A DNA stretch of 63,568 nt from Alloascoidea hylecoeti (Eukaryota): positions 744,433 to 808,000 of the forward strand of contig BCKZ01000008.1 of NCBI GenBank assembly GCA_001600815.1, given 5' to 3'. The position numbers and the translations under genes are program-made. The first letter of the stretch is position 1. Every line of letters begins with the position of its first letter. The notes beneath the pieces are model-generated. The model searched no databases and had not been told where the DNA came from. It was given only the letters and a program-made list of their open reading frames with translations. Below, in pieces: positions 5,445 through 32,657 of this stretch.

Positions 5445-6788
5445 ATGAGTCTTTCACAGCACTCCTCAGGTATGTTCTAACAAAGTTATTCATTTACCAT
5501 TTTGAAAGAATTTAAACATAAATATTTTGTTGTTTTCCTTTTTTTTAGAGGTTGTTTGTCTTCCAATCGTTCGAAATCTTCATTGAAAAATCTGATATTA
5601 ATTATATTTATAGTACTTTTTAAAGGACTGCCTATTCAACGGTTAAATTTTTTACGTAGTTTCAGCTCATCTTCCATAATTAGAAGCAATACTAAGAATA
5701 CTGTGTCTGGTAGACCAAACAATCATCGAAAATCTGGATCCAAATCATCTACCAAAACCGAACCAAAACTTTTAGTTGATGCACAATCAGGAAAGTTTTC
5801 CTTAATAGGAGAAGACAGTCCATTTAATCAATCTAAAGAATTACGAGAAGAATTTCTTTCATTTGTTCAAGAATTTGGTTTTAACTATAGAACACCGAAA
5901 AATGCCTCAAAATTCTCATCAGATTCAAATATACTCAAATACTTGAATCAAACAGCTGAAGATGAGGCATATTCTGATGCCGAATTACACGTTAGGCAAA
6001 AACATCATGCTGATACTATGGGACAATTAGGTTCTTATATCACTGATGTTTATGAACCATATAAAAGTCTCAATCACCCCGTTGATCCTACTGAGTTGAC
6101 AATTTCACACCTTTTAGCATCTGGAGCACATCTAGGGCATCACAAGACCCAATGGAGACCTTCAACACAGACATATATCTATGGTGTTCATAATGGTATT
6201 CATATCATTGATTTAGAGAAAACAACAACATACTTGAGACGCGCAGCAAAAGTCATTGAGGGAGTTTCAGAAAAGGGAGGACTTATTTTGTTTTTAGGTA
6301 CTAGAGAAGGTCAAGCACGTATTGTTCAAACTGCTGCTGAACGTTGTGGTGGGTATTATGTTTCATCTAAGTGGGTTCCAGGGACTCTTACGAACAATTT
6401 CAATATTAGTGGTCATTGGGAAAGAAAAACAGTTAATATGAAAGATGAAACAGTAAATGAAGAAATAGATGAAATTGGTCGAGAGAGTGTGATTAAGCCT
6501 GATTTACTTGTAGTATTAAATCCAAAAGAGAATGATAATGCACTTCGGGAAGCTATGGCTACAGGTATTCCAACAATTGGTATTATTGATACGGATTCAG
6601 AGCCATCTCTGGTAACGTATCAGATTCCAGCAAATGATGACTCGCTACGAACTGTTACTTTAATTGCAGGTGTTCTTTCAAAAGCAGCACAAAAGGGCAG
6701 AGATACACGATATGAAATGTATAATAAACATACTAAGAAACCAGAAGATATACTTGAAGATTCAACATTCCAAGCACTAAAAGCCTGA
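5445..6788 (+). CDS. MRP4: Mitochondrial ribosomal protein uS2m; probable intron 5470-5613
   Basis: S2 motifs GAHLGH, YIYG..GIHIIDL, WVPGTLTN, GIIDTD, IPANDDS. GTATGT...TAG intron joins MSLSQHSS to an Arg/Ser-rich presequence. Confidence 0.93.
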
Positions 6789-7651
6789 ATGTCATAGTTA
6801 TTTGTTGCTGTAAATAGTTCTCAACTCAATAAACAATCTATACACAAATAAATGTAACGAAAAGTAGACCAGGAAGTTTCCACAAAATTTCCAGAATTAT
6901 TAATTCATAGTTCATAGAAATTAATTTGATCAATGATGAATTATAACTTATACACGGTATTATATAAATATTTCTCGTTTAAGTTCCCATTAATAACTCT
7001 TGTATGACACTTAATTTCAGCCATTATGACTACTAAAGATCGGCCATTACCATAACTAATTTTTGGCTGCATTATTACCGGTAAGGCCTATTATTATGCA
7101 GGCATTGCAGGGATTATTGATATGAAACAACTTCGGGTGATAATAAAATGATAATAAGGGACGAAATTAAGTGGAACGACTGTAGCTCCGACTCCGAGTC
7201 GCAGAACGATCAAACCTAAAACATTTTTTGAAAATACCGATTTTATTTTTACAGCTTAATAATGCGTTTACTTGAAAACTTCAATATAATGTATACTAGA
7301 TTAGGTATTTATTTATTTATCTTCAAAGATGAAAATAAAACTCACGACAAGGGTAAATATTAATGATCAACAACAAAATCTGTACAATAAAAAAGTTTAG
7401 AGATATCATATTCAATAAATCAAATTAGGATTAAGTATACGTAACTCCCAGGCTATTTAAACGAAAGACGTAATAGTGGTGGTTATAGGTATAGACAATA
7501 TCTTTAAAAAGATATAAGTAAATATTTGAATAACATAGTGCCAATCATGCTATTTGACATTTTAACAGATATTCAAATATCAGTGTATATTCATTAAAAC
7601 GATCATCAGTATGATCGGCATTTGTTTTCAGATGAGGATTAACAAATATTC

Positions 7652-8809
7652 CTACTTCGTTTTCTTTGTATCTTCAGTTGTAATATCAACAGCAGTTGTT
7701 CCGCTACTATCACTTGAAATACGTTCATCATCACTTTCATCATCACTTCTATCATCTTTCTGTTCACCAGTGGCCACTAATCTATAAGCGATTCTTAGAA
7801 TCAAGAACAACCAATAGGCATTAACCAACTGTAAACCGGAAATCAAAGTGAAAGAAATTACTTGAGAAATCCAGCATTTATATTGTTGAGTTTCCCAGTT
7901 TAAAGTGTAGTCTCCAACAGTTCTAAATTCAGTTAAAATAGACCACAAAATCTTCAGGTTTAAATAATGTCTAGTATATACCCAAACAAAGATAAAGACG
8001 GTGAAGAAGGGAGGAACGAATACGCTTTCAAGATAGTTAAGAGTTTTAGAGGCAGCTAAGAAGAAGTCTGATACATCCATCGTTATATAAACTTCTAGAC
8101 CAACCCAAGTGAAATGGAAACGATATGATAAGAAAATCAAAGACATTGTAATAATATGATGAAATACTAATTCTTTGAAATCCTTTCTTGGCTTTTCAAG
8201 TTGAAGCATGAGAACAACCGATTGCTGTGCCCAGAAAGCTGCCTGTAACAAGTAGTAAACTTTAAAGTGGAATTGGTGTTCTTTATGAGGATAATCAACA
8301 TAAAAAGGAGTTGTTTTAAAAAACCAGAGATCAGAATAGTACATGATATAGATACCATAAGGTGAAGATAATCCATAGTAGCACATGGAGTAAGCTTGCT
8401 CCATAAATCTTTTCATTTTCCCATACGATCTAAGCCCACAGAAAACGGCTAAGGGTTGCAAAACGACCTGCATTAGGAATTCTCGGTAAAAGGTGAAAAA
8501 TATCATATAAAAGAAGACAAAACAAAAATCTTTCTTCCCTTTACCATAATATGGAGGATTTGTACCGGGGATTTCATAAGAGGGGCAGATGAATTTGTGT
8601 AACGGGTTTGTTGCGGTATGATTACCGGAGAAATAATAAGACCCTGAAGTAGTTAAAAGGATAACAAGAGGAATAAACCAGGTCTGACGATAGGCCAAGT
8701 TTGTGAAAAGGTGTTTGATCTTGAGTTGCTTGAGGGTATGCATAGTTGACAGGGAGGGCCCTGTATTATCACCCAAATCAAGTTTTCCAACCGAAGACCG
8801 TCTGCGCAT
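7652..8809 (-). CDS. LAG1: Ceramide synthase (Lag1/Lac1 family, TLC domain)
   Basis: RRRSSVGKLDLGD N-terminus; Lag1 motif RFMEQAY..EKPRKDFKELVFHH..MDVSDFFLA; acidic tail DDRSDDESD. Confidence 0.93.
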   Translation of the reverse strand: MRRRSSVGKLDLGDNTGPSLSTMHTLKQLKIKHLFTNLAYRQTWFIPLVILLTTSGSYYFSGNHTATNPLHKFICPSYEIPGTNPPYYGKGKKDFCFVFFYMIFFTFYREFLMQVVLQPLAVFCGLRSYGKMKRFMEQAYSMCYYGLSSPYGIYIMYYSDLWFFKTTPFYVDYPHKEHQFHFKVYYLLQAAFWAQQSVVLMLQLEKPRKDFKELVFHHIITMSLIFLSYRFHFTWVGLEVYITMDVSDFFLAASKTLNYLESVFVPPFFTVFIFVWVYTRHYLNLKILWSILTEFRTVGDYTLNWETQQYKCWISQVISFTLISGLQLVNAYWLFLILRIAYRLVATGEQKDDRSDDESDDERISSDSSGTTAVDITTEDTKKTK

Positions 8810-8971
8810 TTTGAAAAATTGGAGTGGTTAGATGGAAAAGAGGAAGGTTCGGAAAAGTCAGTTCCTGTGATCATGATCTGCACGTGATGACACAGTTGCT
8901 AGATCGCCTTATTAATACATAATTAACAGTACCTGTATTAATTATAACACTCCGTGCCCACCAACCCTATC

Positions 8972-10614
8972 ATGTCCACAGAAACCATATTCAGTATGTC
9001 CTCTCTTGTTCGTTTTCTCGATTTTTCAGCAATCACCACTAACCCAACCAGTCAAGGCCACAGACGAGTCTCTGGACTCCGACAACTGGGAGTACATTCT
9101 GGATGCCTGCGACCATGTCTCCTCAGATCAAGAGTATGCCTCCTTTTCCATCTTTAGCTGTGAATCCTGTTAATTAATACATTCCTGACAGTGTCAATGA
9201 AGCCATGGACATCCTCCAACAGCGATTGGAGTCGAAGGACGAGAACGTTCTCCAGAGGACTCTTTCGGTATGCCTCCCATTTCTTCACCTCTAAATATGA
9301 CCACCATTCCACTAACCTTCAAATGGTGCTGACCTTAGCTGCTCACCTCTTTGGCCGAGAACTGCGGCCCTTACATGCGCACCCAAATAGCCACTTCCCA
9401 TTTCACCTCAATACTCCTGGACTTAACCTCTGATAAAGCCGTCCCTCAATCTGTCAAGTTTCGAGTTTGTGAGGTAATTGCCCAGCTGCGTGACTCCTTT
9501 GGCGACGATCCTTCTTTGGCTGCAATGGACCACGCATACAAAAAATTGCAGCGAAAAAGACCTTCATTACTCGTTCCCGAAAAACCACAGAAACATGAAT
9601 TGACTGATACTGATAGACTGAAAGAGGAAGAAGAATTGAATGCAGTTTTGAAGTTGTCTCTAGATGAATATGAAAGATACCATCCAACTAAGCAACAATC
9701 ACATTCATATGAACAGGAGGAACCTGAACAATCTCATTATCAGGAAGAACTCTTTGAATCATCTCCTTCTCCTCCTCCGACCCAGCCACAACTACAACAG
9801 ACCCAATCACCTTCTTCCCCTCATACACAACAACCTCAATCATATCCCCCTTCTCAAGCCCATCGTCAAACCGAGAAACAGCAACAGTCACCAACGCCAA
9901 TATATCAAGAACAACATTCATCTCCAAAGCTCCAACAACCCCAACCCCATCCACAACAACAGCCAAAAAAAGATGTCCCCATTTCAGAAACAAAAGATAA
10001 AGGTACAAATGTTGCCACTGTTAGTCGAGTCAGAGCTCTTTATGATCTTGTTTCATATGAACCCGAGGAACTATCTTTCCAAAAAGGTGACATAATTACT
10101 GTCCTCGAAAGTGTTTACCGTGACTGGTGGAGAGGTTCTTTACGTGGGCAAATTGGAATTTTCCCCTTGAATTACGTTACTCCAATAAAAGATGCAACAC
10201 CGGAGGAAATTGAAGCTGAAGCAAGAGAAGAAGTTGCAATTACTAGAGAATCTAGAAATGTTGAAAAATTATTGGCTTTATTAAGTAGTATGAATTCAAG
10301 AGGTGGTGCTGATATTTTAAATCTAACTGAAAATCAACAAATTCAAGAATTATATAATTCAATTACACCATTGCGTCCAAAACTTGGAACTTTAATTGAA
10401 TCATATGCTCAAAAAAAGGAAGATTTAATCCTTTTAAATGATAAACTTGCCGAGTCAGAAAGGTTATACAATGATTTAATGGATGCTTCAATTAAACCAT
10501 ATAAATCCCCACAGCAACAAGAGAAACCATCATTAATACCTATTCCTTCTGGCCAAGGGCCCTCCACAAAATACTATAATCGTGTTCCTTCAAATTCTTT
10601 AGGAGGACAAATGA

Positions 10615-10656
<42 letters not shown>

Positions 10657-10904
10657 CTCATCATCAAGCACCGTATCCAAATGATACATTGCCACCCTGT
10701 GATCATGATATGTTATCACAATCTTCCGTTTCTCCATATCCTACGAATAATTTGCCATTGCCTAACCCTTATCCTTATCAAGAAGGGTCCAATGCCCACT
10801 CCCAACCACATTTGTCTCATTCACAAAACCAAATGGCACAAAGTCAACAATCTCAACTACAGACTCCTTATCCAAATTATCCTTCATTTGCAAGATCTCA
10901 ATAA
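8972..10904 (+). CDS. HSE1: ESCRT-0 subunit (VHS-UIM-SH3-GAT, Q/P-rich tail); exons 8972-8993, 9052-9133, 9192-9267, 9339-10904
   Basis: Three introns (GTATGT, GTATGC, GTATGC donors) give VHS KATDESLDSDNWEYILDACD..LAENCG. UIM EEEELNAVLKLSL; SH3 VRALYDL..DWWRG..GIFPLNYV. Confidence 0.95.
10618..10656 (+). repeat. (CAA)n microsatellite, polyQ in HSE1
   Basis: Tandem CAA run, visible directly. Confidence 0.9.
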
Positions 10905-11244
10905 CTATGATAAATTTAGGCACATTTGTCTTCGCATTTTTTTACATTTATAACATTTATAGTAAACTTATATACCTTCCTCTTTGTATTCATTTAATAC
11001 TTTGAATTTATGTTCGTGTAACTGAAAAAATCTTAATTAAACCTGTTTTTCGACTGCGAAGTTTCCCCTATAAGCCTTAGATACAATCGAAGCTATACTT
11101 AAATTACTATATTAAATTTAAGGTCTATAGTTAGATTTGTTAACAGTTTAAAGCTTCAAATTTGTTGTGCTTTGGTAATGTGCGGCTGAACTACAGTGCG
11201 TCGTAATACGTATTACTGCGTACGTACCTTACTTACAAGCAGTC

Positions 11245-12493
11245 GTGAAGATTTGTCATCTCATAAACGATTTAATCTTCAAACAATTATCACACAAAAC
11301 TTTACTCAATTGTAGAGATGTATCTAAATCATGGAAACAAGCAGCTGAATATGATGGTATATGGAAATCAAAGTTCAAAGATCAAAAATATTGGAAATAC
11401 TATAATGATGATTTGGAGACTGATTCATGGTATGAATATAAAGTGCGTTATCTTTTAGAATCAAATTGATAAATTTACAAAACATAAATGGTCATTCTAG
11501 CCAAACAGAGTGTGTTAAATTTTATAAAAACTGGATTTTAACTGGTTCAGTAGATTGTACAATTAGAATTTGGGATAGTGAAACTTTTCAATGTTTAATT
11601 ATAGGCAAACCAGATCCTAAGATTTTAAAACAATTAGCTGCACCAACTCTTGATTTTTTAAGAGATAATCTATCAGAAATCCAAATATTGGAATTAACAA
11701 AAAATTTTGATATCAAATTTCATTTGGGCAGTGTTATTTGTGTGGATATTAATGATATATATTTAATTTCTGGCTCATGGGATAGGTCATGTATAATTTG
11801 GAAATTACCTAATTTCAAACCAATAAATCATCTATATATGCCACTAAATGGTATTTTTTCAAGTCATTTTATACAACAATTATATTCTATGCTATAATTC
11901 TTATCATATAAGGATCTGAAAATCAAGTATCGATGATTTAGAAAAGCATCTACAGTACAATTTACGGTACAGTTTAGAAGGACAATATTGGAGTCATATT
12001 TGGATTAATAATGGTATAATATATAGTAAAGACGGGACATATTTAATAAGGTCTTGGAAAGTTGAAACTGGTCAAATGGTCAAAGAATTTCAATATTACC
12101 ATTTAGGGGCCATGAAAGTAAAAGATCAGTACTTATTTGCTACTCCTAACTACCAACAAATAACAGTTCGGGGTTTACAATCAAATGAAGTAATAAATGT
12201 TAGTAGATCAGGAAGGATTTGGGAAAGCAATTGCAATATTTATAGTTGATAATAAAATCATTTGTCTTGATTGTTATTGTACTATTACAATTTGGAATTT
12301 AAATGATCTAAAATTATTTAAAAAATTTAAAAAATCAAATTATCGAATCACCATTTTAAATACTTCCTGCTCAATTGATGCTGAGTCTAAAAAGATGGCT
12401 GCTTTTACTTTGGATGGTGATCTTGTTGTTTATGATTATACTAAACATTTAAGAAAAAAATACATTTATAATTTATTGAATATTGAAAATTGA
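11245..12493 (+). pseudogene. F-box/WD40 protein pseudogene, copy 1
   Basis: F-box (LIFKQLSHKTLLNCRDVSKSW) and WD repeats (GHSSQTECVKF..TGSVDCTIRIWD; ISGSWDRSCIIWK) split by frameshifts and stops. Confidence 0.85.
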
Positions 12494-13275
12494 AAGTAAA
12501 CATCGTTACGTTAATTATAAATTTCAATAGAAACTAATTATAATATCACCATTTAATTTATACGCACGGAATTAAACCTGAGGCACCACGTGAACTTGTA
12601 GGTAACTTAGTCTGATGTTTACACAGCTCAGCGCATATATTAGAATGACAAAAATGATCGTAGAATTTCTGTGAAAACATAAGATTTCTCCGTAAATTTC
12701 TACAAAAAGTTCGATTTTCCGTAAGAATTTCCGTCATTCGTATTGTGTATATATGTATTATGCATAACCAAAATGTTATAATATTAATATGATTAAATAA
12801 GAACTATAATACTCAGTAAATAGTGAATAGATGAATTTAATTTATAAGCGCCAAATGAACTAATGTTCTGAATCGCTTTCCTTTTATAGCTATTATAATT
12901 AACTACTAGTAGCTATTAGCTAACGATGTTTTCTTTAAATAGGTGTCTATTGATATTTAACTTTTGCTAGACTTTCTAAGTTTTCATTCCGTTATAATCG
13001 GAGTAATACTATATATGAATTTTTATTATTCCTAGTATGTAAAGGCCTTATATAGAATATATAGCATTGGCCTATAGCTGACTTTCGTCATAGCACAATA
13101 GTTATTATAACTTATATACATGTGAAGTTCTTTAATGTTCTTATGAACCTTTTTATACCCTTAGAAAAGACAAAATTACCGTATGGTATATAAGTTAATA
13201 TAACCAAACTGATATATCATTTCTATTCATAAATTAATGGAATGGTATTGGGCAACTGTCTAATAGTAATAGGAA

Positions 13276-13740
13276 ATGTCACCTAACAAGCAAATGTTAA
13301 ATTTTTAGAACCCCAAGATTGGTAAAACAGGAAATGACTGCTATACAAAAGAATTTAAAAAAGAGATTATTGTATATCGAGATTAACCACAATGGAATTT
13401 TTTATCAAGAAAATACTAAATCCCACTATATTTGGTTAGATTTATCAGGATTATCAGGTAAAATTTCAAATGGTGATCCAAAAAATATGGATCGAACTAT
13501 ACATTGTAGTTAGAAGTAGAGGTCAGCCAAGACAAGTAATAAATGAAATGCGTAGATCAATCTGATCAACTATATACTCACAATCATTGTTAATAGTCTT
13601 AAGGAATCTATCACCAAGTGGTTCTAAATTGCTTATAAGATCTTTTGTTAGAGTTACACGCTACGACGAACTGATGTCAATTAATTTCTAATAAGACTTA
13701 AAAACTTTTATTTCGAATATAAATACTTTTATTTAACGTT
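13276..13740 (+). mobile_element. Possible pogo/CENP-B-like transposase relic
   Basis: A stop-riddled frame reads YTKEFKKEII..LSRKY*IP..LEVEV, and later ITKWF..YTLRRT, loosely like the pogo tandem HTH. Weak. Confidence 0.3.
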
Positions 13741-15960
13741 GACTAAATTTCGGCCAATAATAATTCTAAATTCGTGGTTGTGCTGAGAATCTACTTTTCT
13801 GATTTACTTCTCATAACTCTTGGTTAGCCTCTACTGTACTAAGTTCCGTCGCGTTTACTTCGAAGTTTACTCTACTTAAGGCATCTGCTGCTGAGTTGGT
13901 TTTACCAGGTATATACTTAATGGTAAAATTAAATTCCGCCAGGAAGTCTATCCACCTAGCAATTCTGCTTTTATTCAGTTGCTTTTGTTGGTGAATATAT
14001 TGTAATGAATTATGGTCTGTCTGTAACACAAAGTGGTTGTCCTTTAAGTAATATTCCCACTCCTTCAGTGCAAACACTACTGCCATAAATTCTTTCTCCC
14101 TTGTTGGATAATTCAGTTCTGCTTTCTGTAGTTTCTTTGACGCGTAGCCCACTACTCCTATCAGTTTACCATCTATTGTCTTTTCCTCTAGTGTAGCCCC
14201 TAATGATATATCGCAAGCGTCTGTAGTCACTATAAATACTCTATCACCTTGTTGTGGTATTTGTGGTACTACTAAAATTGGTTCAGACGACAATTTCTGC
14301 TTTAGTTCTTCAAAAGCTATGTCGCATTCTCCGTCCCACTCTCTGGCTTTGTTCGCGAATTCTATCATTGGTTTTGCTATCTTCGAGTACTGTGCGATAA
14401 ATCTTCTGTAGTAGTTTGCTAGTCCTAGAAATGATTGTGCCTCTTTATCGCTTTTGGGTACCGGCCATTCCCTAATGGTGGCTACTTTCTTGTTATCCGG
14501 CATGATCCCGTTGCTTGTGATTTTATGTCCTAAAAAGTCTAATTCCTTCAACATAAATGCACATTTCTTCTTCTTCGCTCGTAACTTGTTGGCTCTAAGT
14601 TTCTCCAATACCAGTTTTACATGTTCTTCGTGCTCTTTCTCGTTCCTTGAGTATATCAAGATGTCATCTAAATACACTATCACAAATTTGCCTTTAAACT
14701 CTGCTAACACATCATTCATAACGTACTGAAAGGTGGCCGGGGCATTGGTTAACCCAAATGGCATTACATTCCATTCAAAATGTCCCTCTTTCGTTGTGAA
14801 GCCTGTTTTTGCTCTATCTGATTCATTTATAACAATTTGGTGATAGCCCGACATCAAATCTAACTTCGAGAATACTTTCGCACCATGTAATTGATCTAAC
14901 AGGTCATTAATTACTGGTAAAGGGTACCTATTCTTAATCGTTTGGTTGTTAAGAAGTCTATAATCAACACATAACCTCATGCTACCATCTTTTTTCTTCA
15001 CAAACAATACCGGTGCCGAATATGGGGACTGTGACCTGGATATTGACCCATTCTCCAACAGCTCTCTTAGCTGTCGTTGTAATTCTTCATTATCCTTATA
15101 TGACATTCTATAAGGAGCCCTAGCCGGTGGTTTAGACCCTTCCATTATCTCTATGTTATGATAAAACTGGTGCTGTCTTTCCGGTACTCCTTTTGGTTGT
15201 ATATTTGTCACAACGTCTTCATATCCGCTCAGGAATTTAGGTAGCTCTGGTTCTGGTTTGGTTGATTCTATTACTTCGTTCACTTCCAACGGTTCTTCGC
15301 CTATGTCTTCAACTTTTAGTTGTACTCGTCCCCAGCTATTGTGTCTAATTTCTTTCAAAAATTCTTTTACACCAAGGGTTTGGCACTTAACTGACTCAGG
15401 TTCATTACTCCTGAGGTTGGGCTCACAGGTTCTACGATTAGTGAATAGTCTGCTTATATCTTTCAAAACTTCAAATACTTTATTATTATTTTTCTTTACT
15501 TCTTTATTTAAATTTTTAACTTCTTTACTTAAAATTTTAACTTCTTTAGTCTCTTCTTTCTTTTCTATATCTTTAACTATTTCTTTTGATGTGACAAGGC
15601 TTGGTTTTCTATTTTTCATGCTACTAAAATCGCATACATTATTTTTACATATAATTTTACTTGCCATATTTTCCTTTATAATCAGGCCCTTAACTCTGGG
15701 TTCTGATTCTTCTTTTCCTTTGGCATCTTGTTTCTTTTCTAAATCAATATTTTTTCTTCCACTCGCCATTGTGGGTCTTTTTTGGTTTTTATAATTTTTT
15801 TTGGTTTTTATATTTTTAACATTTTTTTCTATTTTTTCTGCCTTGTCTTTTGCATCATTCTTTTCTCTTGTATAACTCTCTATTTTATTTAGGTCTATTC
15901 CTTTGATCTCTGGCTGTTCCATGCTTAAAATCTTCTTTGGGTCTTCATCTTTCTGTTCTT
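13596..15960 (-). repeat. Left arm of 2365-bp inverted repeat
   Basis: Reverse complement of 16928-19292; paired positions sum to 32888. Breakpoints read directly, and all paired ORF translations are identical. Confidence 0.97.
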
Positions 15961-16458
15961 TATAAATGAATGGTCTTCCTAAATATACTTGGTGGCTGAG
16001 TCCTTCTGTGACCCAGAAATCCATCTTCCAGTACCTGTTTTCATATTTTAATTCTAACTTGACCACTCCTGTTACCAGCATCTCGTTACTAGCTTGTGCT
16101 GTGTTTAGGACCCTTGGAACCGCCAACTGCCGGACTGTATTTGAGGCACCCACCAATTCTACAGCGCGAGTATCTATTAACATTGAGGAACAACCAGAAT
16201 CTATAAGGCATGGCACTATTTTACCATTAATTTGGAAGGGAATTTCCTTTAACATCATGTTCAGGGGTACTTCTTCTTCAAAATCTTGACCTAATTCTGG
16301 GGTTCCCTTTGTACTACGCACTGTGGTACTAGCTGTTGTCACTATTACATCCCTTGGTCCCAACTTCGGTATCACCCTTGGCTGGGTCGGGTTGTCTTTC
16401 GTTAACAACTGGGGGCCTTTTATACCAATATTACCGGTCCTTCTTAATATTGGTTTCC
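13811..16458 (-). CDS. Ty3/gypsy Pol: protease, RT, RNase H; stops before integrase
   Basis: PR LIDSG..LGRPF; RT RLCVDYR..LN, SKLDLMSGYHQI, MPFGLTNAPATFQ, YLDD; RH TDAC..E..L..TDH..N..ADALSR. The frame is open upstream of 16408 and overlaps the gag end in -1. Confidence 0.95.
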
Positions 16459-16465
16459 TTTTGGG
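16425..16465 (-). promoter_or_regulatory. Putative -1 ribosomal frameshift signal (gag-pol)
   Basis: In-frame slippery heptamer C CCA AAA (16465-16459), 5-nt spacer, then 9-bp stem CCAATATTA/TAATATTGG. Confidence 0.7.
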
Positions 16466-16927
16466 CAGTTTTGCTTGCTGTGCCCTTTCTCATGGCAGTG
16501 GAAACATCTGCCTTCTCTCTTTAAAAGATTGAGTTCTTTCCAATTCAATCTTTTCCCGGGGGTCAGTGCTGCTACTGACATTTCCGTATCCCCGTCTGCA
16601 TCTATCCGTCTATCGCCATAGTTGTTATATCTATGTTGGGTCCCCCGTCGTCCTTCATTTCTGTAATCTGGTCTTCTGGGATTTCTATCCTGTCTCCAGG
16701 TATTTTCTCGGTAGACACGTTCTTGTCTATCGGTCAAGTGTCGTATTTCCTCCAGGCGGACCGCTTTTGTCATACAGTCTTCTAGTGAATCCGGACGGTC
16801 CTCATATAATTTGATTCTTGTGTAAGGCTTTAACCCATCTATGAACTGTTGTATTTTAATCGATTCTTCGATGGGAGGGACTAATCGTGAGAGTCGCGCG
16901 AATTCTGCTGCGTATTCACTGGCCGTG
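16444..16927 (-). CDS. 5'-truncated Ty3/gypsy Gag (capsid C-terminus and CCHC nucleocapsid)
   Basis: Open from 16926: TASEYAAEFARL..QFIDGLKP..LEDCMTKAVRLE, then CFHCHEKGHSKQNC (CX2CX4HX4C). Cut at the right-arm junction. Confidence 0.92.
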
Positions 16928-19292
16928 AAGAACAGAAAGATGAAGACCCAAAGAAGATTTTAAGCATGGAACAGCCAGAGATCAAAGGAATAGACCTAAA
17001 TAAAATAGAGAGTTATACAAGAGAAAAGAATGATGCAAAAGACAAGGCAGAAAAAATAGAAAAAAATGTTAAAAATATAAAAACCAAAAAAAATTATAAA
17101 AACCAAAAAAGACCCACAATGGCGAGTGGAAGAAAAAATATTGATTTAGAAAAGAAACAAGATGCCAAAGGAAAAGAAGAATCAGAACCCAGAGTTAAGG
17201 GCCTGATTATAAAGGAAAATATGGCAAGTAAAATTATATGTAAAAATAATGTATGCGATTTTAGTAGCATGAAAAATAGAAAACCAAGCCTTGTCACATC
17301 AAAAGAAATAGTTAAAGATATAGAAAAGAAAGAAGAGACTAAAGAAGTTAAAATTTTAAGTAAAGAAGTTAAAAATTTAAATAAAGAAGTAAAGAAAAAT
17401 AATAATAAAGTATTTGAAGTTTTGAAAGATATAAGCAGACTATTCACTAATCGTAGAACCTGTGAGCCCAACCTCAGGAGTAATGAACCTGAGTCAGTTA
17501 AGTGCCAAACCCTTGGTGTAAAAGAATTTTTGAAAGAAATTAGACACAATAGCTGGGGACGAGTACAACTAAAAGTTGAAGACATAGGCGAAGAACCGTT
17601 GGAAGTGAACGAAGTAATAGAATCAACCAAACCAGAACCAGAGCTACCTAAATTCCTGAGCGGATATGAAGACGTTGTGACAAATATACAACCAAAAGGA
17701 GTACCGGAAAGACAGCACCAGTTTTATCATAACATAGAGATAATGGAAGGGTCTAAACCACCGGCTAGGGCTCCTTATAGAATGTCATATAAGGATAATG
17801 AAGAATTACAACGACAGCTAAGAGAGCTGTTGGAGAATGGGTCAATATCCAGGTCACAGTCCCCATATTCGGCACCGGTATTGTTTGTGAAGAAAAAAGA
17901 TGGTAGCATGAGGTTATGTGTTGATTATAGACTTCTTAACAACCAAACGATTAAGAATAGGTACCCTTTACCAGTAATTAATGACCTGTTAGATCAATTA
18001 CATGGTGCGAAAGTATTCTCGAAGTTAGATTTGATGTCGGGCTATCACCAAATTGTTATAAATGAATCAGATAGAGCAAAAACAGGCTTCACAACGAAAG
18101 AGGGACATTTTGAATGGAATGTAATGCCATTTGGGTTAACCAATGCCCCGGCCACCTTTCAGTACGTTATGAATGATGTGTTAGCAGAGTTTAAAGGCAA
18201 ATTTGTGATAGTGTATTTAGATGACATCTTGATATACTCAAGGAACGAGAAAGAGCACGAAGAACATGTAAAACTGGTATTGGAGAAACTTAGAGCCAAC
18301 AAGTTACGAGCGAAGAAGAAGAAATGTGCATTTATGTTGAAGGAATTAGACTTTTTAGGACATAAAATCACAAGCAACGGGATCATGCCGGATAACAAGA
18401 AAGTAGCCACCATTAGGGAATGGCCGGTACCCAAAAGCGATAAAGAGGCACAATCATTTCTAGGACTAGCAAACTACTACAGAAGATTTATCGCACAGTA
18501 CTCGAAGATAGCAAAACCAATGATAGAATTCGCGAACAAAGCCAGAGAGTGGGACGGAGAATGCGACATAGCTTTTGAAGAACTAAAGCAGAAATTGTCG
18601 TCTGAACCAATTTTAGTAGTACCACAAATACCACAACAAGGTGATAGAGTATTTATAGTGACTACAGACGCTTGCGATATATCATTAGGGGCTACACTAG
18701 AGGAAAAGACAATAGATGGTAAACTGATAGGAGTAGTGGGCTACGCGTCAAAGAAACTACAGAAAGCAGAACTGAATTATCCAACAAGGGAGAAAGAATT
18801 TATGGCAGTAGTGTTTGCACTGAAGGAGTGGGAATATTACTTAAAGGACAACCACTTTGTGTTACAGACAGACCATAATTCATTACAATATATTCACCAA
18901 CAAAAGCAACTGAATAAAAGCAGAATTGCTAGGTGGATAGACTTCCTGGCGGAATTTAATTTTACCATTAAGTATATACCTGGTAAAACCAACTCAGCAG
19001 CAGATGCCTTAAGTAGAGTAAACTTCGAAGTAAACGCGACGGAACTTAGTACAGTAGAGGCTAACCAAGAGTTATGAGAAGTAAATCAGAAAAGTAGATT
19101 CTCAGCACAACCACGAATTTAGAATTATTATTGGCCGAAATTTAGTCAACGTTAAATAAAAGTATTTATATTCGAAATAAAAGTTTTTAAGTCTTATTAG
19201 AAATTAATTGACATCAGTTCGTCGTAGCGTGTAACTCTAACAAAAGATCTTATAAGCAATTTAGAACCACTTGGTGATAGATTCCTTAAGAC
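16928..19292 (+). repeat. Right arm of 2365-bp inverted repeat
   Basis: Mirror copy of 13596-15960. Confidence 0.97.
16966..19077 (+). CDS. 703-aa ORF: K/E-rich linker plus Ty3/gypsy RT-RNase H (no Gag, PR or IN)
   Basis: ATG-initiated and identical to the last 703 aa of the minus-strand Pol. Expression unknown. Confidence 0.7.
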   Translation: MEQPEIKGIDLNKIESYTREKNDAKDKAEKIEKNVKNIKTKKNYKNQKRPTMASGRKNIDLEKKQDAKGKEESEPRVKGLIIKENMASKIICKNNVCDFSSMKNRKPSLVTSKEIVKDIEKKEETKEVKILSKEVKNLNKEVKKNNNKVFEVLKDISRLFTNRRTCEPNLRSNEPESVKCQTLGVKEFLKEIRHNSWGRVQLKVEDIGEEPLEVNEVIESTKPEPELPKFLSGYEDVVTNIQPKGVPERQHQFYHNIEIMEGSKPPARAPYRMSYKDNEELQRQLRELLENGSISRSQSPYSAPVLFVKKKDGSMRLCVDYRLLNNQTIKNRYPLPVINDLLDQLHGAKVFSKLDLMSGYHQIVINESDRAKTGFTTKEGHFEWNVMPFGLTNAPATFQYVMNDVLAEFKGKFVIVYLDDILIYSRNEKEHEEHVKLVLEKLRANKLRAKKKKCAFMLKELDFLGHKITSNGIMPDNKKVATIREWPVPKSDKEAQSFLGLANYYRRFIAQYSKIAKPMIEFANKAREWDGECDIAFEELKQKLSSEPILVVPQIPQQGDRVFIVTTDACDISLGATLEEKTIDGKLIGVVGYASKKLQKAELNYPTREKEFMAVVFALKEWEYYLKDNHFVLQTDHNSLQYIHQQKQLNKSRIARWIDFLAEFNFTIKYIPGKTNSAADALSRVNFEVNATELSTVEANQEL

Positions 19293-19342
19293 CGGGTAAT
19301 ATAATATGAACAAACGATGTCACGTGTGTATATGGAGATATC

Positions 19343-19401
19343 TAGCTCGGACTCGGACTCGGGAGTACCCCGAAAATTCCCGAGTTTTTGCCCGAACGCT
19401 A
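19343..19401 (-). mobile_element. Probable hAT-type transposon terminus
   Basis: Minus strand begins TAGCGTTCGGGC, followed by clustered CCGAG/CTCGG subterminal repeats in an otherwise AT-rich context. Confidence 0.5.
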
Positions 19402-19403
19402 CT

Positions 19404-19802
19404 CTAGTCTCTACACTGTTTTACAGTTTGTTTCGCGATACTTGCTGGTGTTGAATCACGACTACTAATCGTCATGCGTGCTAAATGCCTTATAGATAGA
19501 GGTGTGGTGATTGGCTTTCTTCTACGGGTTTTAATCTTCTGAATAGCCTGGTGTTGACTGTTCAATCTTTTAAAGAACAACGTTGTTTTTTTAGAAATCT
19601 CAAGAATAGAAACACCAGAACCATTTCTTATGCTGTGCATTCTGATTTTTTCTTCTTCAGTGGAGCGTCTTTGGGTATGTTTGACCATTAGAAATATATC
19701 TATAGTTTTTTGTTATAAAAAGGAAAAAATTTATTTATAAAAAATAGGTGTTTCAGATCTACAACTTTTTTGGAGTTGGGGTCAAAAAAGTGTCCGAATG
19801 TG
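19404..19802 (-). mobile_element. 5' fragment of a Tc1/mariner element (end plus DNA-binding N-terminus)
   Basis: ORF GVSILEISKK..RRKPITTPLSIRHLARM..SSRDSTPASIA resembles the Tc1 paired domain. End CACATTCGGACACTTTTTTGACCCCAACTCCAAAAA resembles the end of the 1003-2309 relic. Confidence 0.65.
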
Positions 19803-19880
19803 AAAAAGAACAATTTTTACTACACATTTGGAAACATTTTCAACATCAATTCATTAAATATATAACAACATCACAAATGA

Positions 19881-21012
19881 CTACAAGGGTGAATTTTTGA
19901 GTAAATAAGACACACTTTCTCCATTATGTAATCTCCTAATACTTTCAGCAACAAAATTACTGATATCGATCATATCCAATTTGTGGCATAACTTAATCTT
20001 ATCATCAAATGGAACGGTATTTGTGCAAACAACTCTTTCAAGTTGTGATTTGTTTATAATTTCTATAGCCTTACCACTCAGAACACCATGTGTAACAATA
20101 GCAATCACAGATTTGGCTCCCTGGTTCATTAAAACATCAGCAGCTTTAGTCAATGTACCACAAGTATCAGCCATATCATCAACAATTATACATATATACC
20201 CTCTTACATCACCAACTAATATCATTCGAGAAATTTGATTATCAACTATTCTTTCCTTGTGAATCAGAGCAAAGCCTACCCCCAAACGATTCGCTATACT
20301 TGCAGCTCTTTTTGCACCACCAGCATCAGGTGAGATAATTTTTGCCCCCTTCCCTGCTTTGTATGGAATGTTTTCTTTTATATATTGGATGACGCTTGGT
20401 TCAGCATAAAGATTATCAACAGCTATATCAAAAAAACCTTGTATCTGGCTCGTATGTAAATCCATTGTAACAATATGATCACAACCAGCCGTTTGTAACA
20501 TTTCGGCGACAAGTCTTGCCGTTATAGTCACTCTCGATCTGTCTCTGCAATCTTGTCTAGCATAAGGGAAATTTGGTAAAACAGCAGTAATTCTTCTTGC
20601 TGAGGCTAATTTACAAGCATTAATCATTATCAACACTTCAAAAAGCTTGTCATTTACCTCACCAGACCCAATTTGTTGAAGAATATATACTAAGAAAAAA
20701 AAAATATTTAAATTAGAAGACGAAAGAATCAAAAAATCTAGAGAAGAACCTACCATCTTCATCTCTAACCGATTCGCCAACAGCAATAGAAATTTCATGA
20801 TTTGGATCATGCGTAACATCTACCTTTATAGGATTTATACCAAGTCTTATCAATGTTATTAGTTTTACTACTCTCTGTTGGTTTTGATTTTTTGGAGTAT
20901 GATGAGATGCAAATTTGTTTCATAATCAGAAATATACTAACCTTCTACCAACAAGTTTACCAAGCCTTCCATACTTATCATCAGCAAGCAATTTTATAGA
21001 GTTTGTAGACAT
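19881..21012 (-). CDS. PRS3: Ribose-phosphate pyrophosphokinase, Prs3-type; two introns (about 20941-20846 and 20753-20690)
   Basis: Spliced [71 protein letters not shown]. Confidence 0.9.
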
Positions 21013-21144
21013 TTATTAAATATTAAGAAAAAGAATTGTTTTTTTTTTAAAGAAAAAGTAAAGGAATAAATAGTTCTAGAAATAGCCACAGCCAATCACA
21101 CATTTAATTAATAATTATAAGCGACCATAGTTAGTTATCATGAT

Positions 21145-23364
21145 CTAGCGTCTGGCCTGCTGCTTCCGACGAATTGCTCCTTTTTTCTTCCCCTTTCCAT
21201 TCGTAGAAGATTCTGGTAATTGCCCAACCGTAAGAGATCCTTCAACCACTTCCTCCCCAGCATTAGCTAGCTTTTCTTGAGCTTCAAAATGAAACATGAG
21301 ATCTCGAATTTCCTCCTCAAGACATCCAATTTTTTCATCCTTGTTTTTGCTTTCTTCTGTAACAAACTGCAATTTTTCCATAAGTTGAGTACTAATTAAT
21401 TTCTCTTCCTTGTATTGCTTTTGTAACACATTACATAGTTCACGTAGTTTTGTGATTCGGACATTACTCTTATCTAATTCATGCATATATTTTGGAAGTT
21501 GACTAAGTTTCTCTTCAATTTCATCTCTCTGGTGGATGCTCTTATCAAGTTTTTCCTCAAATTCATCCAATGTTTTGGTCATCTTTTCGCTAAATGCGAT
21601 AGCTTCCGACGCCTTATCAACGGCCATAGAAAGCTTATCTTCATAATATTCTCTTTGTGATTCTAACTGAGACGTTAATAGATAAGTATATTCTAGACTT
21701 ATACCCTCAATTTTCTTAGATGTAGCATTTCCATCTTCATCACCATTATTATTACCGTTTGAATTAGATCCAGATGGGGATGGAAATTCTACCAATTTAC
21801 CATCGGCTTGATTTTGTAATAGTCTATGAACATAGTTATCGCCAACATAATCCCAAACTCTTTGCGAATCAATATCCATAGAGTAACAATGACCTGTTTC
21901 TGTGTAATGATTTATGGCATGTTTTTCATCATATCTACCACAACCGACATTACCACAAATTAAACATATCCATAAATTTTGAGTCTTTCCACAAGCACTA
22001 CAGGCTAGCCCTTCATCAGTTCTTTCGGTCTTATCCAGTAATTTATTTAATTTAGACTTAGAGGTGGAATATCGACAAACAGGGCAACTATCATCTGTCC
22101 ATTTACTTAAACAATGACAATGAAAAGTGTGTTGACAAGCAATAGTTATTAAGCCTGTAATATTTGAATCCATTCTTTCAAGGCATACAGGACATGTTGG
22201 AAGTTCTTTTAGAGCTTTACTTCTTGGTGGGGGAGGTCGTGTATCATCAATAAGTTTATCTGAGTTCGTTATCTCCTTGCGTTCATCTGTAATAAAAGGG
22301 TCTTCAAGTAGGTAAGGAAAATCAGAGCTATGATTAACCTGAGATCGAAACAAGATAGAATGAACATAAATAACATGACAGGTTTCGGGTTCCATTGAAT
22401 TAAATGTTTTCCCATTATATTGTTGATAAAATCTTTCCGCACTTTCATGTTCATTAAACTTCATCAACACCATATATCGATTCGGGGTAATAGAGCGAAT
22501 TAGTCTAACATGAGTAATATTATCTCTTGTATTTTGTCCAATAAAGCCTAATAAGTCAATTGCTGTAAAGTATCCAGGCACAGCAACGATAGCTACAATT
22601 GTTCCTGTTTCGTCTGTTGAATCTTTTTCATCATGTTTAAGATCACCATCTACTTCTTTTTCGTCTTCCTCAAATGATCTAAACAATCTTACCACCCCGT
22701 ATCCTAAAAGCCTTGCTTTCAGAGGTTCACTTGATAATGACACACTTGGTGTCTTTTTCTTAGTATCTATGGCTGACGCTTCCATTTTGCTTTGTTTTGA
22801 ATTTTCCAAGAAATCAATGGTTATAATTTCGACAGCACTGAATCTCCAATCAACAGATCCACCTTTTAGATATGATGACTTATCAGATAATTTATTATAG
22901 TTAGCAGTATAAGATTGCGAAACTTTAGCAGAAAGGGTTTCGATTTCTCTCTTTGTTCTTTGTTTGGGATTTTTGCTATCCGATGGGTTAAGCTCAAGGG
23001 AGTGGAAAAGATTTCTTGAATTATATACCTCTTGACACCAAGGGTCTACTTCTCTCTCGCAAATATGCCGTATAACTTGTAATCTAGGTGCTGATTCTGT
23101 TAAAGGCTTGTTGGAAGATGTTGTCTTGTGGTTGTGGTCGTGGTCGTTGCCGCTGGATTTTGTTATGATTAGATGATTCAAATAGGCCTGTGAAATGGGA
23201 TTACAGCTGATTAGGTCAGAAGGATTTAGAATATCAAAAATGACTGCGAATTTTGCCTTCTCTTTATCCATCGGAGATGTATGGCAAGAGAAATAAACAG
23301 TACTGGTAGTAGAAGAGAGAAGGTGGTGGTGGTGGTGTACTGTTACAACACTATAAAATTTCAT
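21145..23364 (-). CDS. ETP1: BRAP2/IMP-like RING plus UBP zinc finger protein
   Basis: BRAP2 domain NRYMVLMKF..FNSMEPETCH; RING CPVCLERMD..CQHTFHCHCL..CPVCR; zf-UBP WICLICGNVGCGRY; coiled-coil tail. Confidence 0.92.
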   Translation of the reverse strand: MKFYSVVTVHHHHHLLSSTTSTVYFSCHTSPMDKEKAKFAVIFDILNPSDLISCNPISQAYLNHLIITKSSGNDHDHNHKTTSSNKPLTESAPRLQVIRHICEREVDPWCQEVYNSRNLFHSLELNPSDSKNPKQRTKREIETLSAKVSQSYTANYNKLSDKSSYLKGGSVDWRFSAVEIITIDFLENSKQSKMEASAIDTKKKTPSVSLSSEPLKARLLGYGVVRLFRSFEEDEKEVDGDLKHDEKDSTDETGTIVAIVAVPGYFTAIDLLGFIGQNTRDNITHVRLIRSITPNRYMVLMKFNEHESAERFYQQYNGKTFNSMEPETCHVIYVHSILFRSQVNHSSDFPYLLEDPFITDERKEITNSDKLIDDTRPPPPRSKALKELPTCPVCLERMDSNITGLITIACQHTFHCHCLSKWTDDSCPVCRYSTSKSKLNKLLDKTERTDEGLACSACGKTQNLWICLICGNVGCGRYDEKHAINHYTETGHCYSMDIDSQRVWDYVGDNYVHRLLQNQADGKLVEFPSPSGSNSNGNNNGDEDGNATSKKIEGISLEYTYLLTSQLESQREYYEDKLSMAVDKASEAIAFSEKMTKTLDEFEEKLDKSIHQRDEIEEKLSQLPKYMHELDKSNVRITKLRELCNVLQKQYKEEKLISTQLMEKLQFVTEESKNKDEKIGCLEEEIRDLMFHFEAQEKLANAGEEVVEGSLTVGQLPESSTNGKGKKKGAIRRKQQARR

Positions 23365-23407
23365 CCATTACAATATATAGTTAGATATTTATTATTAATT
23401 TGCCCTC

Positions 23408-24986
23408 CTAGATACGAATTCCTCTCTGAAAAACAGGCTTATCACTATTTACCAATCTTTTTGCTGATGTCCAACCTTGTCCGGGAACAAAAATTCTTTT
23501 ATAAGGTCTCCCGTTTTTGTCAACCTTCCTCAAAAGAGTTGTTACCGTTTCCATCTGTTGTTGATCCGTCAAAGGCAAAAACGCGTTTTTTCCGACTTCT
23601 TTAGCACTATAGGTCTTTAAACTGGTAGAGTTTGGATTAATGTAAGATAAACTACGGGATGGACTTGACTTCTTGCTTGTAGGTGAGAAAGACACCTTTT
23701 TGTTCTCACTAATATTTTGCAGATTTTCAGACCCATCAAATCCAAATTTAACCGAAGGTTTATGATTCCCCTTTAATATGGTAGAAGGGGTGGTAACTTT
23801 GATATCACCAAACTTGACAATAGGTTCTTCTAAGACTTGCGATTGACTGGTATTACTCTTAACATATTCTTTGAATTTAGTTCTGCCAATTGGATCTGTG
23901 ATATCAAACATCTTGTCCCTTCTAGTCATTGGTGGATCAGCAGAAACGGGTCCATTGACTTTCATTATTGGTCTTTCAATCAAAGGTTGAGCAGCTATAA
24001 ATAAAAAATGTTAGGATGGTATCGAATTAGATATTATGCAAACAAACGTTCACCTACAATGAAATTCGGGGTATTTAAAATGGGGACGCACAAACCCATT
24101 TCGGTTGTCAATAATAGGACCCATAGAAGAATGCAATGATAGTTCAGGGTATTTAGTATATGGATGAGACGTAAAAGGTGGATTGATATTGTTCATTCCT
24201 CGAATTCCATGCGTGGTATGTAAGTCAAATAACTTTCTATGAATCTTCTCAAATTCTCTTCTAACGTCACCCCCTCTGTTCAGCCTTCCCTGTATGTTTT
24301 TAATTTCAGACCTTAAAGAAATAGAGATTTCAGAGACCTCAGCTCGCAACTTTTGCTCGGCCATCTTAATATCAAATATCTGAGTTTCACTTCGAGAGGC
24401 AATACTATTTTCTTTTTTGGGTAAAATACTGGTAACAAATCTCAAAACAACCGTAGCCTGCACAAGAAGACTTAAATATATGGCGATCGTAGTACCAAAA
24501 GTTTTAAACAACGAGTATTGAGACCCATTACGCATGGCATTTGAACCGGCCTCCTGGATACAGTGTAAAACATTAAAAGCCATTGCACCTTCTGAGTTTC
24601 CTTCTCTGCTTTCAATGCAACTAGATAAATATTGTTAGAACATGAAAATGTAGACTATGGAAGCTAAGCGCCATCAAGACATACCTCTTATAATGATTGT
24701 ATATAATTTCTGGGTATTCTTCCAAAGAAAGCTCCTCTTTGTACAGTCTCGCGAAGGTTAATAAACATTGAGCCCCATCAATCCTAGAGTCTCCAAAACA
24801 AGACACAAGATGGTTATAAGAAGCATGCTGATTCCATGAGATGGGTGTGGGATATGCGACCGAATGCTGGTATGAGGAAGCCAACAGGTAAAAAACAGAA
24901 GAGCTAAAAAGACTTAGGAGAAGCCAGAAAACATCACTATGAGGGATCTTGTTCTTGAAAACAAAAAATGATTTCCTTTGAAACAT
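23408..24986 (-). CDS. Three-exon hypothetical membrane protein (introns 24684-24621 and 24057-23995)
   Basis: GTATGT..CTAAC..TAG and GTAGGT..CTAAC..TAG introns join ORFs 24621-24992, 24050-24583 and 23408-23983 in frame. Two hydrophobic segments. Confidence 0.7.
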
Positions 24987-25262
24987 TTGCAAATTTAACT
25001 GGGGGAATAAATAAATTGTGGGTGGCGGAAAAGAAAGAATTTAGTGTTGCAAATCTTTGTGTTTTATACTCAAATGGGCCTACATATAAAATATTACACT
25101 ACTAATATTAATGTTTAGTTAAGTAGTAACAGTTTCATTGAGATTATAACTAAAAATTTAACATATAGGATATAAATAAGCTGTCGTTTATATTGATTCA
25201 AATATATTTTATTAATATTCATCTTCTCTGGTTGGTATCTAAACTTGATTTCAGATACACTT

Positions 25263-26216
25263 TTAATTGGCCTTCTTGGCTTTTCTAGCTAGAGCTCTTT
25301 CTGTAGCTCTTCTTTTGCGCTGTTCTCTGTCTTTTTTGGCAATTGGGCCTGACTCCGTATCTAAAATATAATCCCAAAATCGGAAAGAGGATGCATAATT
25401 TCCAATAAAGTATTTGTGGTGTAAGTCATGATGCTGAGCCCCAGCCCAGAATGGAAGGAAGTGATGTAACGAGATTGGGAAGTCATAACCGGAATGTGAA
25501 TCAACAGCTTGAAATAATCTCAATGCAACCCAAGTGCAAACTGTTATCAAATGGAGGTTTCCGATAGTAGCTGCATAAATGATTGGGAAGCCAACAGTAC
25601 CAAATCCTAAAGACATAACCTCAATAGGATGAGCATATTCAGCTGTGAATCCAAATGGAGCGGCATATCTATGATGAACCTTATGAATATATTTATAGAA
25701 AAACCCATAATGAAAAAGACGATGGAAAGTATAATGCCAAAAATCTTCAAGTACGAAAAACAAAGCGATTTGTTTAAGCATCACCATCAGAGGAGGGAAA
25801 GGCACACCAACTTCAATACCCAAATTTTGACATATTGGATGAAACCCCCAAATTGGCACCGCTTCAAGAAAGAAGTGCGATTTTAAAACATTTTTAAAGC
25901 ACTCCCATTGCTCCTTATCTGAGGGTATTTTATCAGGTTGTAATTTCCACTTTCTGAAATAAGGAATGCGATCAATGATATACCAAGGTAGACATCTACC
26001 GAAATATAAGCCTTCATGAACACAGAAGAATAGGAGTCCAGTAGCAAATAAATCATTACCAATAAACATATAATATGAAGCCCATAATCTTTCTAGTATA
26101 TTCAATTGAGCATTTTGTGAAATGAAATCAAAAGTTTGCATAATAGACATTGGTGTATAATCTGTTATATTCATGGCGTTAGTGTTACTAGTAACACCAT
26201 TAAGAACAGCAGACAT
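25263..26216 (-). CDS. ERG25: C-4 methylsterol oxidase
   Basis: His boxes [34 protein letters not shown]-type ER-retrieval tail. Confidence 0.96.
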
Positions 26217-26598
26217 GGTGAATCTAATCACTATTTGATGGAGAATTGTTAAACTTAAGGGACTTACTCCATATATATATACTAAAGATACAAAGACTAA
26301 TGTGACTAATTAATATTAATATTCCCACTGGAAATAAACAAATAGAATCGCTCAAACCAGGTGGTGTGCTTTTCTTTTTTGGTTGTTGCGTCGGTCCAGA
26401 TATAAATATCCGACACCGAGAGACGAGACTCGTACCTTATAACTAAGCAAAGTAAATGTAACTTGAGTAATCAATTACCCGATATTTCATCTGCACTAAA
26501 ATTACCCCGATTACCAATATGTGCGATGGGATCGGATCAAACATATGATTTCGGTGGTGGTCAAAAAATACTATGGTTTCATATAGCCCTCAGCGAGA

Positions 26599-26605
26599 TA
26601 AACGA
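26599..26605 (-). promoter_or_regulatory. Putative sterol regulatory element (Upc2-type TCGTTTA) upstream of ERG25
   Basis: TAAACGA on + strand, ~380 bp upstream of the ATG; TATA-like run at 26272-26280. Confidence 0.45.
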
Positions 26606-27149
26606 CTCAAACGAGTAAAAATAAATAAAACGTCTCACTAAAATATAAACTTTTCGCTTTACTGTAAAAACACTATATCCGAGCGTCATTGCAGTTTCTG
26701 TGATCCAATTGATTTCTACGTATTACAATTATAAATTATAGAAACTCTAAAATATAGTTTACAAGCCAAACAGCTCATCACAAGCTGAAGAATTTTGTTA
26801 AAGCTTAAGTATAAATGTTTATAAGTTATATCGTTATTTCAAATTTACCGTACTATATCCGTTATACTGTTGGGAGCTATACAATAGATGCTTGACTAAG
26901 TTTTATCTGGGGAAATAAAACCACGCATTATTTAGATATAGACTGCTCGCGATCGAGTTCAATAGTTTTAATATGTGTCGGCGCTGTCGTGTATTGGAAA
27001 AGAGGAGATAATTTTGAAAACTAAGAAAAAATAAAAACTGTTCAGAATCTAATTATGTATGGTTCCACTGCTTCATCTCTAAATTGGGGAGCAACTTGCA
27101 TGTATTTTCTTATCGGACATGAATGAAGAAAAATAACGGATTTGAATGT

Positions 27150-32619: not shown

Positions 32620-32657
32620 TATAAATTGCCACTGTAAGTGTTAAGTTATGATATGAA

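Follow-up and report, generated by a model that had tools for sequence, protein, structure and literature searches.

A 63,568-nucleotide stretch of the Alloascoidea hylecoeti genome (contig BCKZ01000008.1, positions 744,433 to 808,000 of the forward strand; below, the window, with positions counted from its first letter) contains a perfect palindrome of 5697 bp in total, made of a single fragment of a Ty3/gypsy retrotransposon. An earlier note on this DNA had proposed that the palindrome is a source of small interfering RNAs (siRNAs) directed against the retrotransposon family. In our opinion, its size, its setting and the genes beside it appear to fit a yeast centromere better than an anti-transposon siRNA locus, and it is the centromere that finds more support in our analysis. 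The reading that we rank first, as a tentative possibility rather than a probability, is that the palindrome may be the small regional inverted-repeat centromere of this chromosome, or a part of one.

In budding yeasts the structure of centromeres changes fast while their position is conserved; by what route one structure comes to replace another is still an open question, and most yeast orders have yet to be studied (PMC12711049; here and below, published sources are cited from excerpts). If the centromere reading is true, an inverted repeat of zero divergence, derived from a retrotransposon fragment that can be identified and dated and located at a site syntenic with centromeres, would reveal one such route, namely transposon capture followed by fold-back duplication. 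It would then be a direct snapshot of in situ centromere replacement in a little-studied lineage of budding yeasts. If the palindrome is only a hairpin source or debris, it would be an ordinary member of kinds that are known from Naumovozyma castellii and from maize.

Dimensions and setting of the inverted repeat

Positions 13596-15960 are the exact reverse complement of positions 16928-19292. The two arms are 2365 nt long, differ by 0 mismatches and enclose a middle of 967 nt, as established by a repeat search and by a separate reverse-complement test; the earlier description of a perfect inverted repeat of about 2.4 kb with a 967-bp spacer is thus borne out, including the exact identity of the arms. 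A chance origin of perfect complementarity over 2365 nt is impossible. The homology stops abruptly at all four arm ends and there is no halo of older, decayed similarity around it: past the arms, the first 100 positions hold 28 matches outward and 19 inward, and both values are at the random level. Direct repeats of at least 40 nt are absent from 11-22 kb, and direct repeats of at least 60 nt are absent from the window as a whole save for one microsatellite; given this lack of long direct repeats, the palindrome has no long terminal repeats (LTRs). An Rfam scan of 10.5-21 kb returned no match. The parts of the palindrome are as follows.

13596..15960, minus strand: left arm; reverse transcriptase (RT)-RNase H part of a Ty3/gypsy pol (RVT_1 at residues 497-657, RT_RNaseH at residues 750-853) plus about 215 bp of non-element tail
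13596..13810 (mirror 19078-19292), no strand: AT-rich non-element DNA inside the repeat; GC 29.3%, stops in all frames
13811..16489, minus strand: pol frame, open, 892 codons; protease, linker of about 320 residues rich in lysine and glutamate, RT, RNase H
15961..16927, minus strand: middle (spacer, 967 nt); C-terminal half of gag, CCHC knuckle, gag/pol overlap, protease
16444..16926, minus strand: gag fragment; about 152 N-terminal residues missing, cut at the inner junction 16927/16928
16928..19292, plus strand: right arm; inverted copy of the left arm and its exact reverse complement

The palindrome lies in a gap that holds no intact gene and is bounded by the stop codon of an HSE1-like gene (10904) on the left and by that of a PRPP synthetase gene (19881) on the right. 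The gap and its neighbours are listed below.

5481..6788, plus strand: MRP4 orthologue (mitochondrial uS2); Ribosomal_S2; best PDB chain is the 37S ribosomal protein MRP4, E 6.9e-88
7652..8827, minus strand: LAG1/LAC1 orthologue (ceramide synthase); TLC domain; LAC1/LAG1 chain, E about 3e-132
9339..10904, plus strand: HSE1 orthologue (VHS-SH3-GAT, by Pfam); residues 305-384 (GAT part) match the PDB chain named YHL002W, E 4.8e-10
10905..19880, no strand: gene-free gap, 8976 bp; holds the palindrome and an F-box/WD40 pseudogene (11179-12493)
19881..20819, minus strand: PRPP synthetase (PRS) gene, 3' exon, by Pfam; stop codon 588 bp from the right arm
21145..23367, minus strand: ETP1/BRAP2 orthologue, by Pfam; relatives named Etp1p/ETP1

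All four dimensions of this structure, that is, arms of 2365 bp with 0 differences, a middle of 967 bp, a total of 5697 bp and a gap of 8976 bp, are inside the ranges spanned by the Komagataella phaffii centromeres. In that yeast the inverted repeats of CEN1-4 measure 2012-2699 bp and show 0-1 differences, their middles take up 883-1330 bp and the whole structures 5354-6655 bp, and they sit in non-transcribed regions of 6-9 kb (PMC5010909). The likeness extends to the near identity and length of the arms (about 2-2.7 kb), the size of the middle (about 0.9-1.3 kb) and of the whole (5.4-6.7 kb), and the gene-free surroundings (6-9 kb). The difference lies in the sequence itself: in K. phaffii the arms and middles are unique, no transposon origin is reported in the excerpts cited and Cse4 binding has been shown, whereas here arms and middle alike belong to a single Ty3/gypsy fragment with open frames. 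If the palindrome is a centromere, nucleosomes with CenH3/Cse4 would be expected to sit on its middle and its arms.

Similar structures are described in other budding yeasts. The centromeric inverted repeats of Barnettozyma californica measure 2.4-4.3 kb with 99-100% identity, and in Cyberlindnera the sole centromeric inverted repeats are built from retrotransposon parts (PMC12711049). The present palindrome resembles the centromeres described in Barnettozyma and Cyberlindnera sargentensis, among which there are inverted-repeat pairs of 2.4-4.3 kb and 99-100% identity in long intergenic regions, gained or lost in situ while the location is conserved, and, in Cyberlindnera, repeats formed from parts of retrotransposons. 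However, the Cyberlindnera retroelements are clusters of Ty5-like pseudogenes with LTRs, whereas the present locus consists of just one Ty3/gypsy fragment, which lacks LTRs, and the host is not closely related to any named species. The same study reports that the locations of centromeres are conserved across three yeast orders while their structures change, and that inverted repeats arise or disappear in situ; in one case the inverted repeat includes an additional gene (Hession et al. 2025, PMC12711049).

The genes on the left of the gap are MRP4 (+), LAG1 (-) and HSE1 (+), whose counterparts in Saccharomyces cerevisiae are YHL004W, YHL003C and YHL002W; on the right are the PRS gene and ETP1, with the counterparts YHL011C and YHL010C. 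The numbers of S. cerevisiae open reading frames (ORFs) count outward from the centromere. Hence YHL004W-YHL003C-YHL002W, which we take to be the fourth to second ORFs left of CEN8, would have the same order and the same strands there as in the left flank here. MRP4 and YHL003C are arranged tail to tail in S. cerevisiae, and the arrangement is the same in the window. LAC1, the duplicate of LAG1, is YKL008C in S. cerevisiae, and CEN8 and CEN11 are a duplicated pair.

The retrotransposon fragment and the origin of the palindrome

The DNA of the palindrome is one contiguous Ty3/gypsy fragment with open frames and without LTRs or integrase. The order of a Ty3/gypsy element is found in it, that is, gag and then pol as protease, RT and RNase H. 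Pfam places Asp_protease_2 at residues 83-174 of pol, RVT_1 at residues 497-657 and RT_RNaseH at residues 750-853. The protease corresponds to 15968-16243 and the gag fragment to 16444-16926, which agrees with the earlier assignment of the middle to gag and protease. The Ty3_capsid match of the gag piece is weak (E 1.7e-5, below the Pfam cut-off), and a CCHC knuckle is present. Its best relative among 1.84 billion representatives is a protein of 301 residues with 56% identity; residues 11-171 of the query align with residues 153-301 of this protein, beginning exactly at the inner junction, and therefore about 152 N-terminal residues of gag are missing. At the other end, the alignment of pol to full-length pols reaches the last codon before the stop at 13811-13813, that is, the linker between RNase H and integrase. 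A tblastn search of the whole window for integrase with seven full-length pols gave no match past about residue 817 of 1357.

The element has no second copy in the window, and none was found in the protein collections that were searched. No relative of pol exceeds 56% identity among proteins of 490-1561 residues, and no relative of gag exceeds 56% among the cluster representatives. In metagenome contigs the gag fragment matches 31 loci; at 29 of them the match covers only 14-23 residues around the CCHC knuckle, the remaining two match residues 108-149 at 43-44%, and there is no close relative among the 31. The open frames cap neutral decay since inactivation at about 0.4-1.6% (a 95% bound, calculated from the fraction of substitutions that create stops, with assumed indel shares of 0-20%), and thus the fragment is young.

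With the Ty3/gypsy elements (Metaviridae) of yeasts, such as those represented by the pols of Candida boidinii and Metschnikowia pulcherrima, the fragment shares the order gag, protease, RT, RNase H, the CCHC knuckle, a gag/pol overlap with pol in the -1 frame, and 51-56% identity over RT-RNase H. Unlike intact elements of this kind, it has no integrase and no LTRs, half of its gag is gone, and its pol includes the linker of about 320 residues rich in lysine and glutamate. This linker, between protease (residues 83-174) and RT (residues 497-657), is unusually long for a Ty3/gypsy pol; the corresponding region is 15000-15960 (mirror 16928-17890), with 21-nt tandem repeats at 15498-15548. Pol sits in the -1 frame relative to gag, and their 46-nt overlap holds the heptamer CCCAAAA (16459-16465, minus strand), which reads X XXY YYZ in the gag frame. 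It is plausible that the heptamer is a site of -1 ribosomal frameshifting.

The arms carry the truncation point of the element together with non-element DNA, and it is therefore fair to infer that the simplest origin of the palindrome is a fold-back duplication after truncation. In this respect the earlier interpretation is supported, except for the length of the foreign flank in each arm, which had been given as about 145 bp and which by our measurement is about 215 bp (13596-13810). The GC content of this tail is 29.3%, close to that of the left flank (28.0%) and unlike that of the element (36-44%). The tail may also be a remnant of the element's own 3' end instead of host DNA; no full-length copy of the element was found.

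As for the mechanism, the duplication would have been made at the DNA level and after the truncation. A break within gag could have left a 3' end that folded back and primed synthesis about 1 kb inside, and a second switch would then have carried synthesis into the right flank. The identity of the arms may be due to a recent origin or to recombination between them.

Other origins do not agree with the structure. Two independent insertions are ruled out by the lack of LTRs, by the identical outer ends with their non-element DNA and by an inner junction that joins the middle of gag to the middle of pol; the absence of LTRs and the identical ends likewise uphold the earlier view that a single truncated element is involved. 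A DIRS-like element with terminal inverted repeats is rejected, given the presence of a protease, arms that code for RT-RNase H and the absence of a tyrosine recombinase. The palindrome is not a mating-type flip-flop cassette either, since its middle contains only gag and protease.

Competing explanations

Several observations weigh against a centromere. The arms and the middle are one contiguous, young retrotransposon fragment and not unique non-coding sequence, while the inverted repeats of K. phaffii and Barnettozyma are described, in the excerpts cited, as unique and unrelated to Ty elements (PMC5010909, PMC12711049), and the known centromere-associated elements of yeasts are, according to published excerpts, Ty5-like and not Ty3/gypsy. 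Only the left flank matches the innermost genes of CEN8; the right flank is rearranged, and an RPL14 gene was not seen. The conservation of centromere position is, as far as the cited excerpts go, documented in three orders only, the host has no close named relative, and even among the orders studied one of the eight ancestral centromeres is not conserved. Another AT-rich stretch of the window, at about 39.5-44.9 kb, is also poor in genes, and a second assembly breaks there too. Our literature search found no paper that names HSE1, LAG1 or MRP4 beside a mapped centromere in another yeast, and in the excerpted supplementary text of PMC12711049 none of the three is named. A bolder form of the centromere reading is that we see a centromeric inverted repeat caught at its birth, in which the fold-back of a freshly truncated Ty3/gypsy element would have made a K. 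phaffii-type inverted repeat at an anciently conserved position. This seems to us possible but on the doubtful side.

The explanation of the earlier note is of a different kind, although it can be combined with the centromere reading: if the host keeps RNA interference (RNAi), the palindrome would at the same time be a hairpin source of siRNAs. Pericentromeric repeats serve as a source of siRNAs in fission yeast. The proposal is that read-through transcription yields a hairpin of double-stranded RNA of 2.4 kb, that Dicer cuts it into siRNAs and that Argonaute uses them to silence the intact Ty3/gypsy family in trans. Indeed, any transcript crossing the palindrome must fold into a perfect duplex of 2365 bp, the locus is the downstream neighbour of two transcription units that converge on it (the plus-strand F-box pseudogene, and the minus-strand PRS gene with its stop codon 588 bp away) and could be reached by read-through from either side, a long inverted repeat of transposon sequence is present as in hairpin siRNA loci, and the open frames imply a recently active family as the target. 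The precedent that had been invoked is genuine: in N. castellii, according to published excerpts, palindromic loci yield 74.1% of the 22-23-nt siRNA reads and inverted repeats account for many of the loci richest in siRNAs, and most siRNAs of budding yeasts map to transposons and Y' elements. The palindrome shares with these loci a long inverted repeat in a budding-yeast genome, a potential hairpin transcript and transposon sequence as the silencing target. Mu killer of maize offers a further precedent: it is a naturally occurring inverted duplication of part of a transposon, it lacks its own promoter, and read-through transcription from the adjacent gene has been proposed to give a hairpin of about 4 kb (PMC3440606). 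However, small RNAs, Dcr1 and Ago1 are demonstrated in N. castellii, and Mu killer concerns a plant DNA transposon whose heritable silencing is proven genetically (PMC3440606), whereas the present case is a retrotransposon fragment and a candidate source of siRNAs. Judging by excerpts of the literature, RNAi has a patchy distribution and does not occur in most Saccharomycotina; in the window, neither an Argonaute nor a Dicer gene turned up when 35 ORFs were scanned with Pfam. The palindrome lacks its own promoter, the window holds no further copy of the family, the best relatives of its pol (among proteins of 490-1561 residues) and of its gag (among cluster representatives) are at 56%, and with zero substitutions there is no sign of selection maintaining the locus. 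In our opinion an siRNA locus is quite improbable. It is also possible to see the palindrome as neutral debris, that is, a very recent fold-back of a dead fragment in a gene-poor, pseudogene-bearing intergenic region, which has no evolved function and will decay or recombine away. The open frames and identical arms make the structure young, it has no LTRs, no integrase and no own promoter, the decayed F-box/WD40 pseudogene in the gap makes selection look relaxed, and large palindromes unrelated to centromeres exist in other yeast genomes, as excerpts of published work indicate. Yet debris leaves unexplained why every dimension fits the K. phaffii centromere ranges and why the palindrome lies beside the MRP4-LAG1-HSE1 block. 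Moreover, identical repeats longer than 1 kb are rare in compact yeast genomes, with only seven in that of K. phaffii (PMC5010909). Hence we consider debris unlikely, though less so than an siRNA locus.

All of these readings presuppose that the palindrome exists, and we consider it likely that it does. An artefact of assembly, in which the genome would have one copy of the fragment, or two inverted copies joined otherwise, and chimeric long reads or wrong repeat resolution would have produced the rest, seems improbable to us, a little more so than debris and a little less so than an siRNA locus. Fold-back chimeras typically lie at contig ends and have no spacer. None of the signs of such an artefact (a position at a contig end, no spacer, no distinct flanks) was found here: the palindrome lies inside the contig and inside a window longer than 63 kb, has a spacer of 967 nt and has a different gene-bearing flank on each side. 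The same arm terminus is joined to two different flanks, for which two copies of the terminus are needed. Four sequencing runs, which come from three studies and include an environmental metagenome, contain 0.78-0.81 of the sampled words of 12000-21000; since the arms make up 52% of this interval, arm sequence is present in those runs. Further evidence comes from the second assembly, which is fragmented and belongs to a near-identical strain (738 of 739 residues of BRAP2 and 943 of 944 residues of Slx4 are identical to those of the window). Exact ORF look-ups place eight ORFs of the window, from 19407 to 39268, on one contig of 20186 bp, whose left end is bracketed to positions 19083-19407 of the window, assuming that equal lengths mean one contig and that the assemblies are collinear; the right edge of the repeat, 19292/19293, is inside this bracket. 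This independent assembly therefore stops within about 200 bp of the right edge rather than crossing from flank to flank. Three ORFs from 3162 to 12490 are on a separate contig of 14404 bp, so that assembly does not connect the two flanks, whereas at an empty site they would be contiguous. On the other side, perfect identity of the arms would be the expected product of an artefact, and in a collection of 15 billion proteins none of the six ORFs with an ATG inside the palindrome is present, versus 16 of 21 outside it. There is also no protein of 490-1561 residues in it more than 56% identical to pol. Both absences would be expected if contigs of short reads break at the edges of repeats, although they fit an artefact as well. 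A 36-nt pattern across the inner junction 16927/16928 has 0 matches in metagenome contigs, which also weighs against the centromere reading; a search of the representatives with gag including this junction gave a best identity of 56% and nothing near-identical. Finally, published assemblies of K. phaffii had centromere middles in the wrong orientation (PMC5010909).

Host and gene neighbourhood

The window, ordinary nuclear DNA of a budding yeast, is dense in genes; it encodes MCM4, a CAF-1 subunit, Slx4, KIN17, a patatin lipase and Rsm22 and has one tRNA-Pro. The closest other proteins in the collection are at most 74% identical for MCM4 and at most 51% for BRAP2/Etp1, and the best matches that carry names are scattered across many orders of Saccharomycotina; given how distant and scattered these matches are, the host is a yeast without a close named relative.

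The PRS and HSE1-like ORFs miss N-terminal parts of their first domains (Pribosyltran_N matches from profile position 50 and VHS from position 66), which suggests that both genes have 5' introns. The F-box/WD40 sequence in the gap (11179-12493) has a paralogue at 53614-54731; the two are inverted relative to each other, 41-43 kb apart and 75-89% identical in blocks. Compared to the paralogue at 53.6-54.7 kb, the copy beside the palindrome has indels of 2, 5 and 11 nt. Since these are not multiples of three, at least this copy is a pseudogene, and we reject frameshifts caused by sequencing errors as an explanation.

The second gene-poor stretch, at about 39500-44900, has a GC content of 26-30% and no ORF with a Pfam match. 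The breaks of the second assembly in this area are the right end of the 20186-bp contig, at 39268-39592, and the left end of a 13468-bp contig, at 43091-46489. The stretch at about 39.5-44.9 kb may be an alternative site for a centromere or for another feature that is hard to assemble. The ORF at 44963-46339 encodes a protein rich in glutamine and asparagine without a Pfam domain, with triplet repeats of the CAA/CAG type at 45000-45190.

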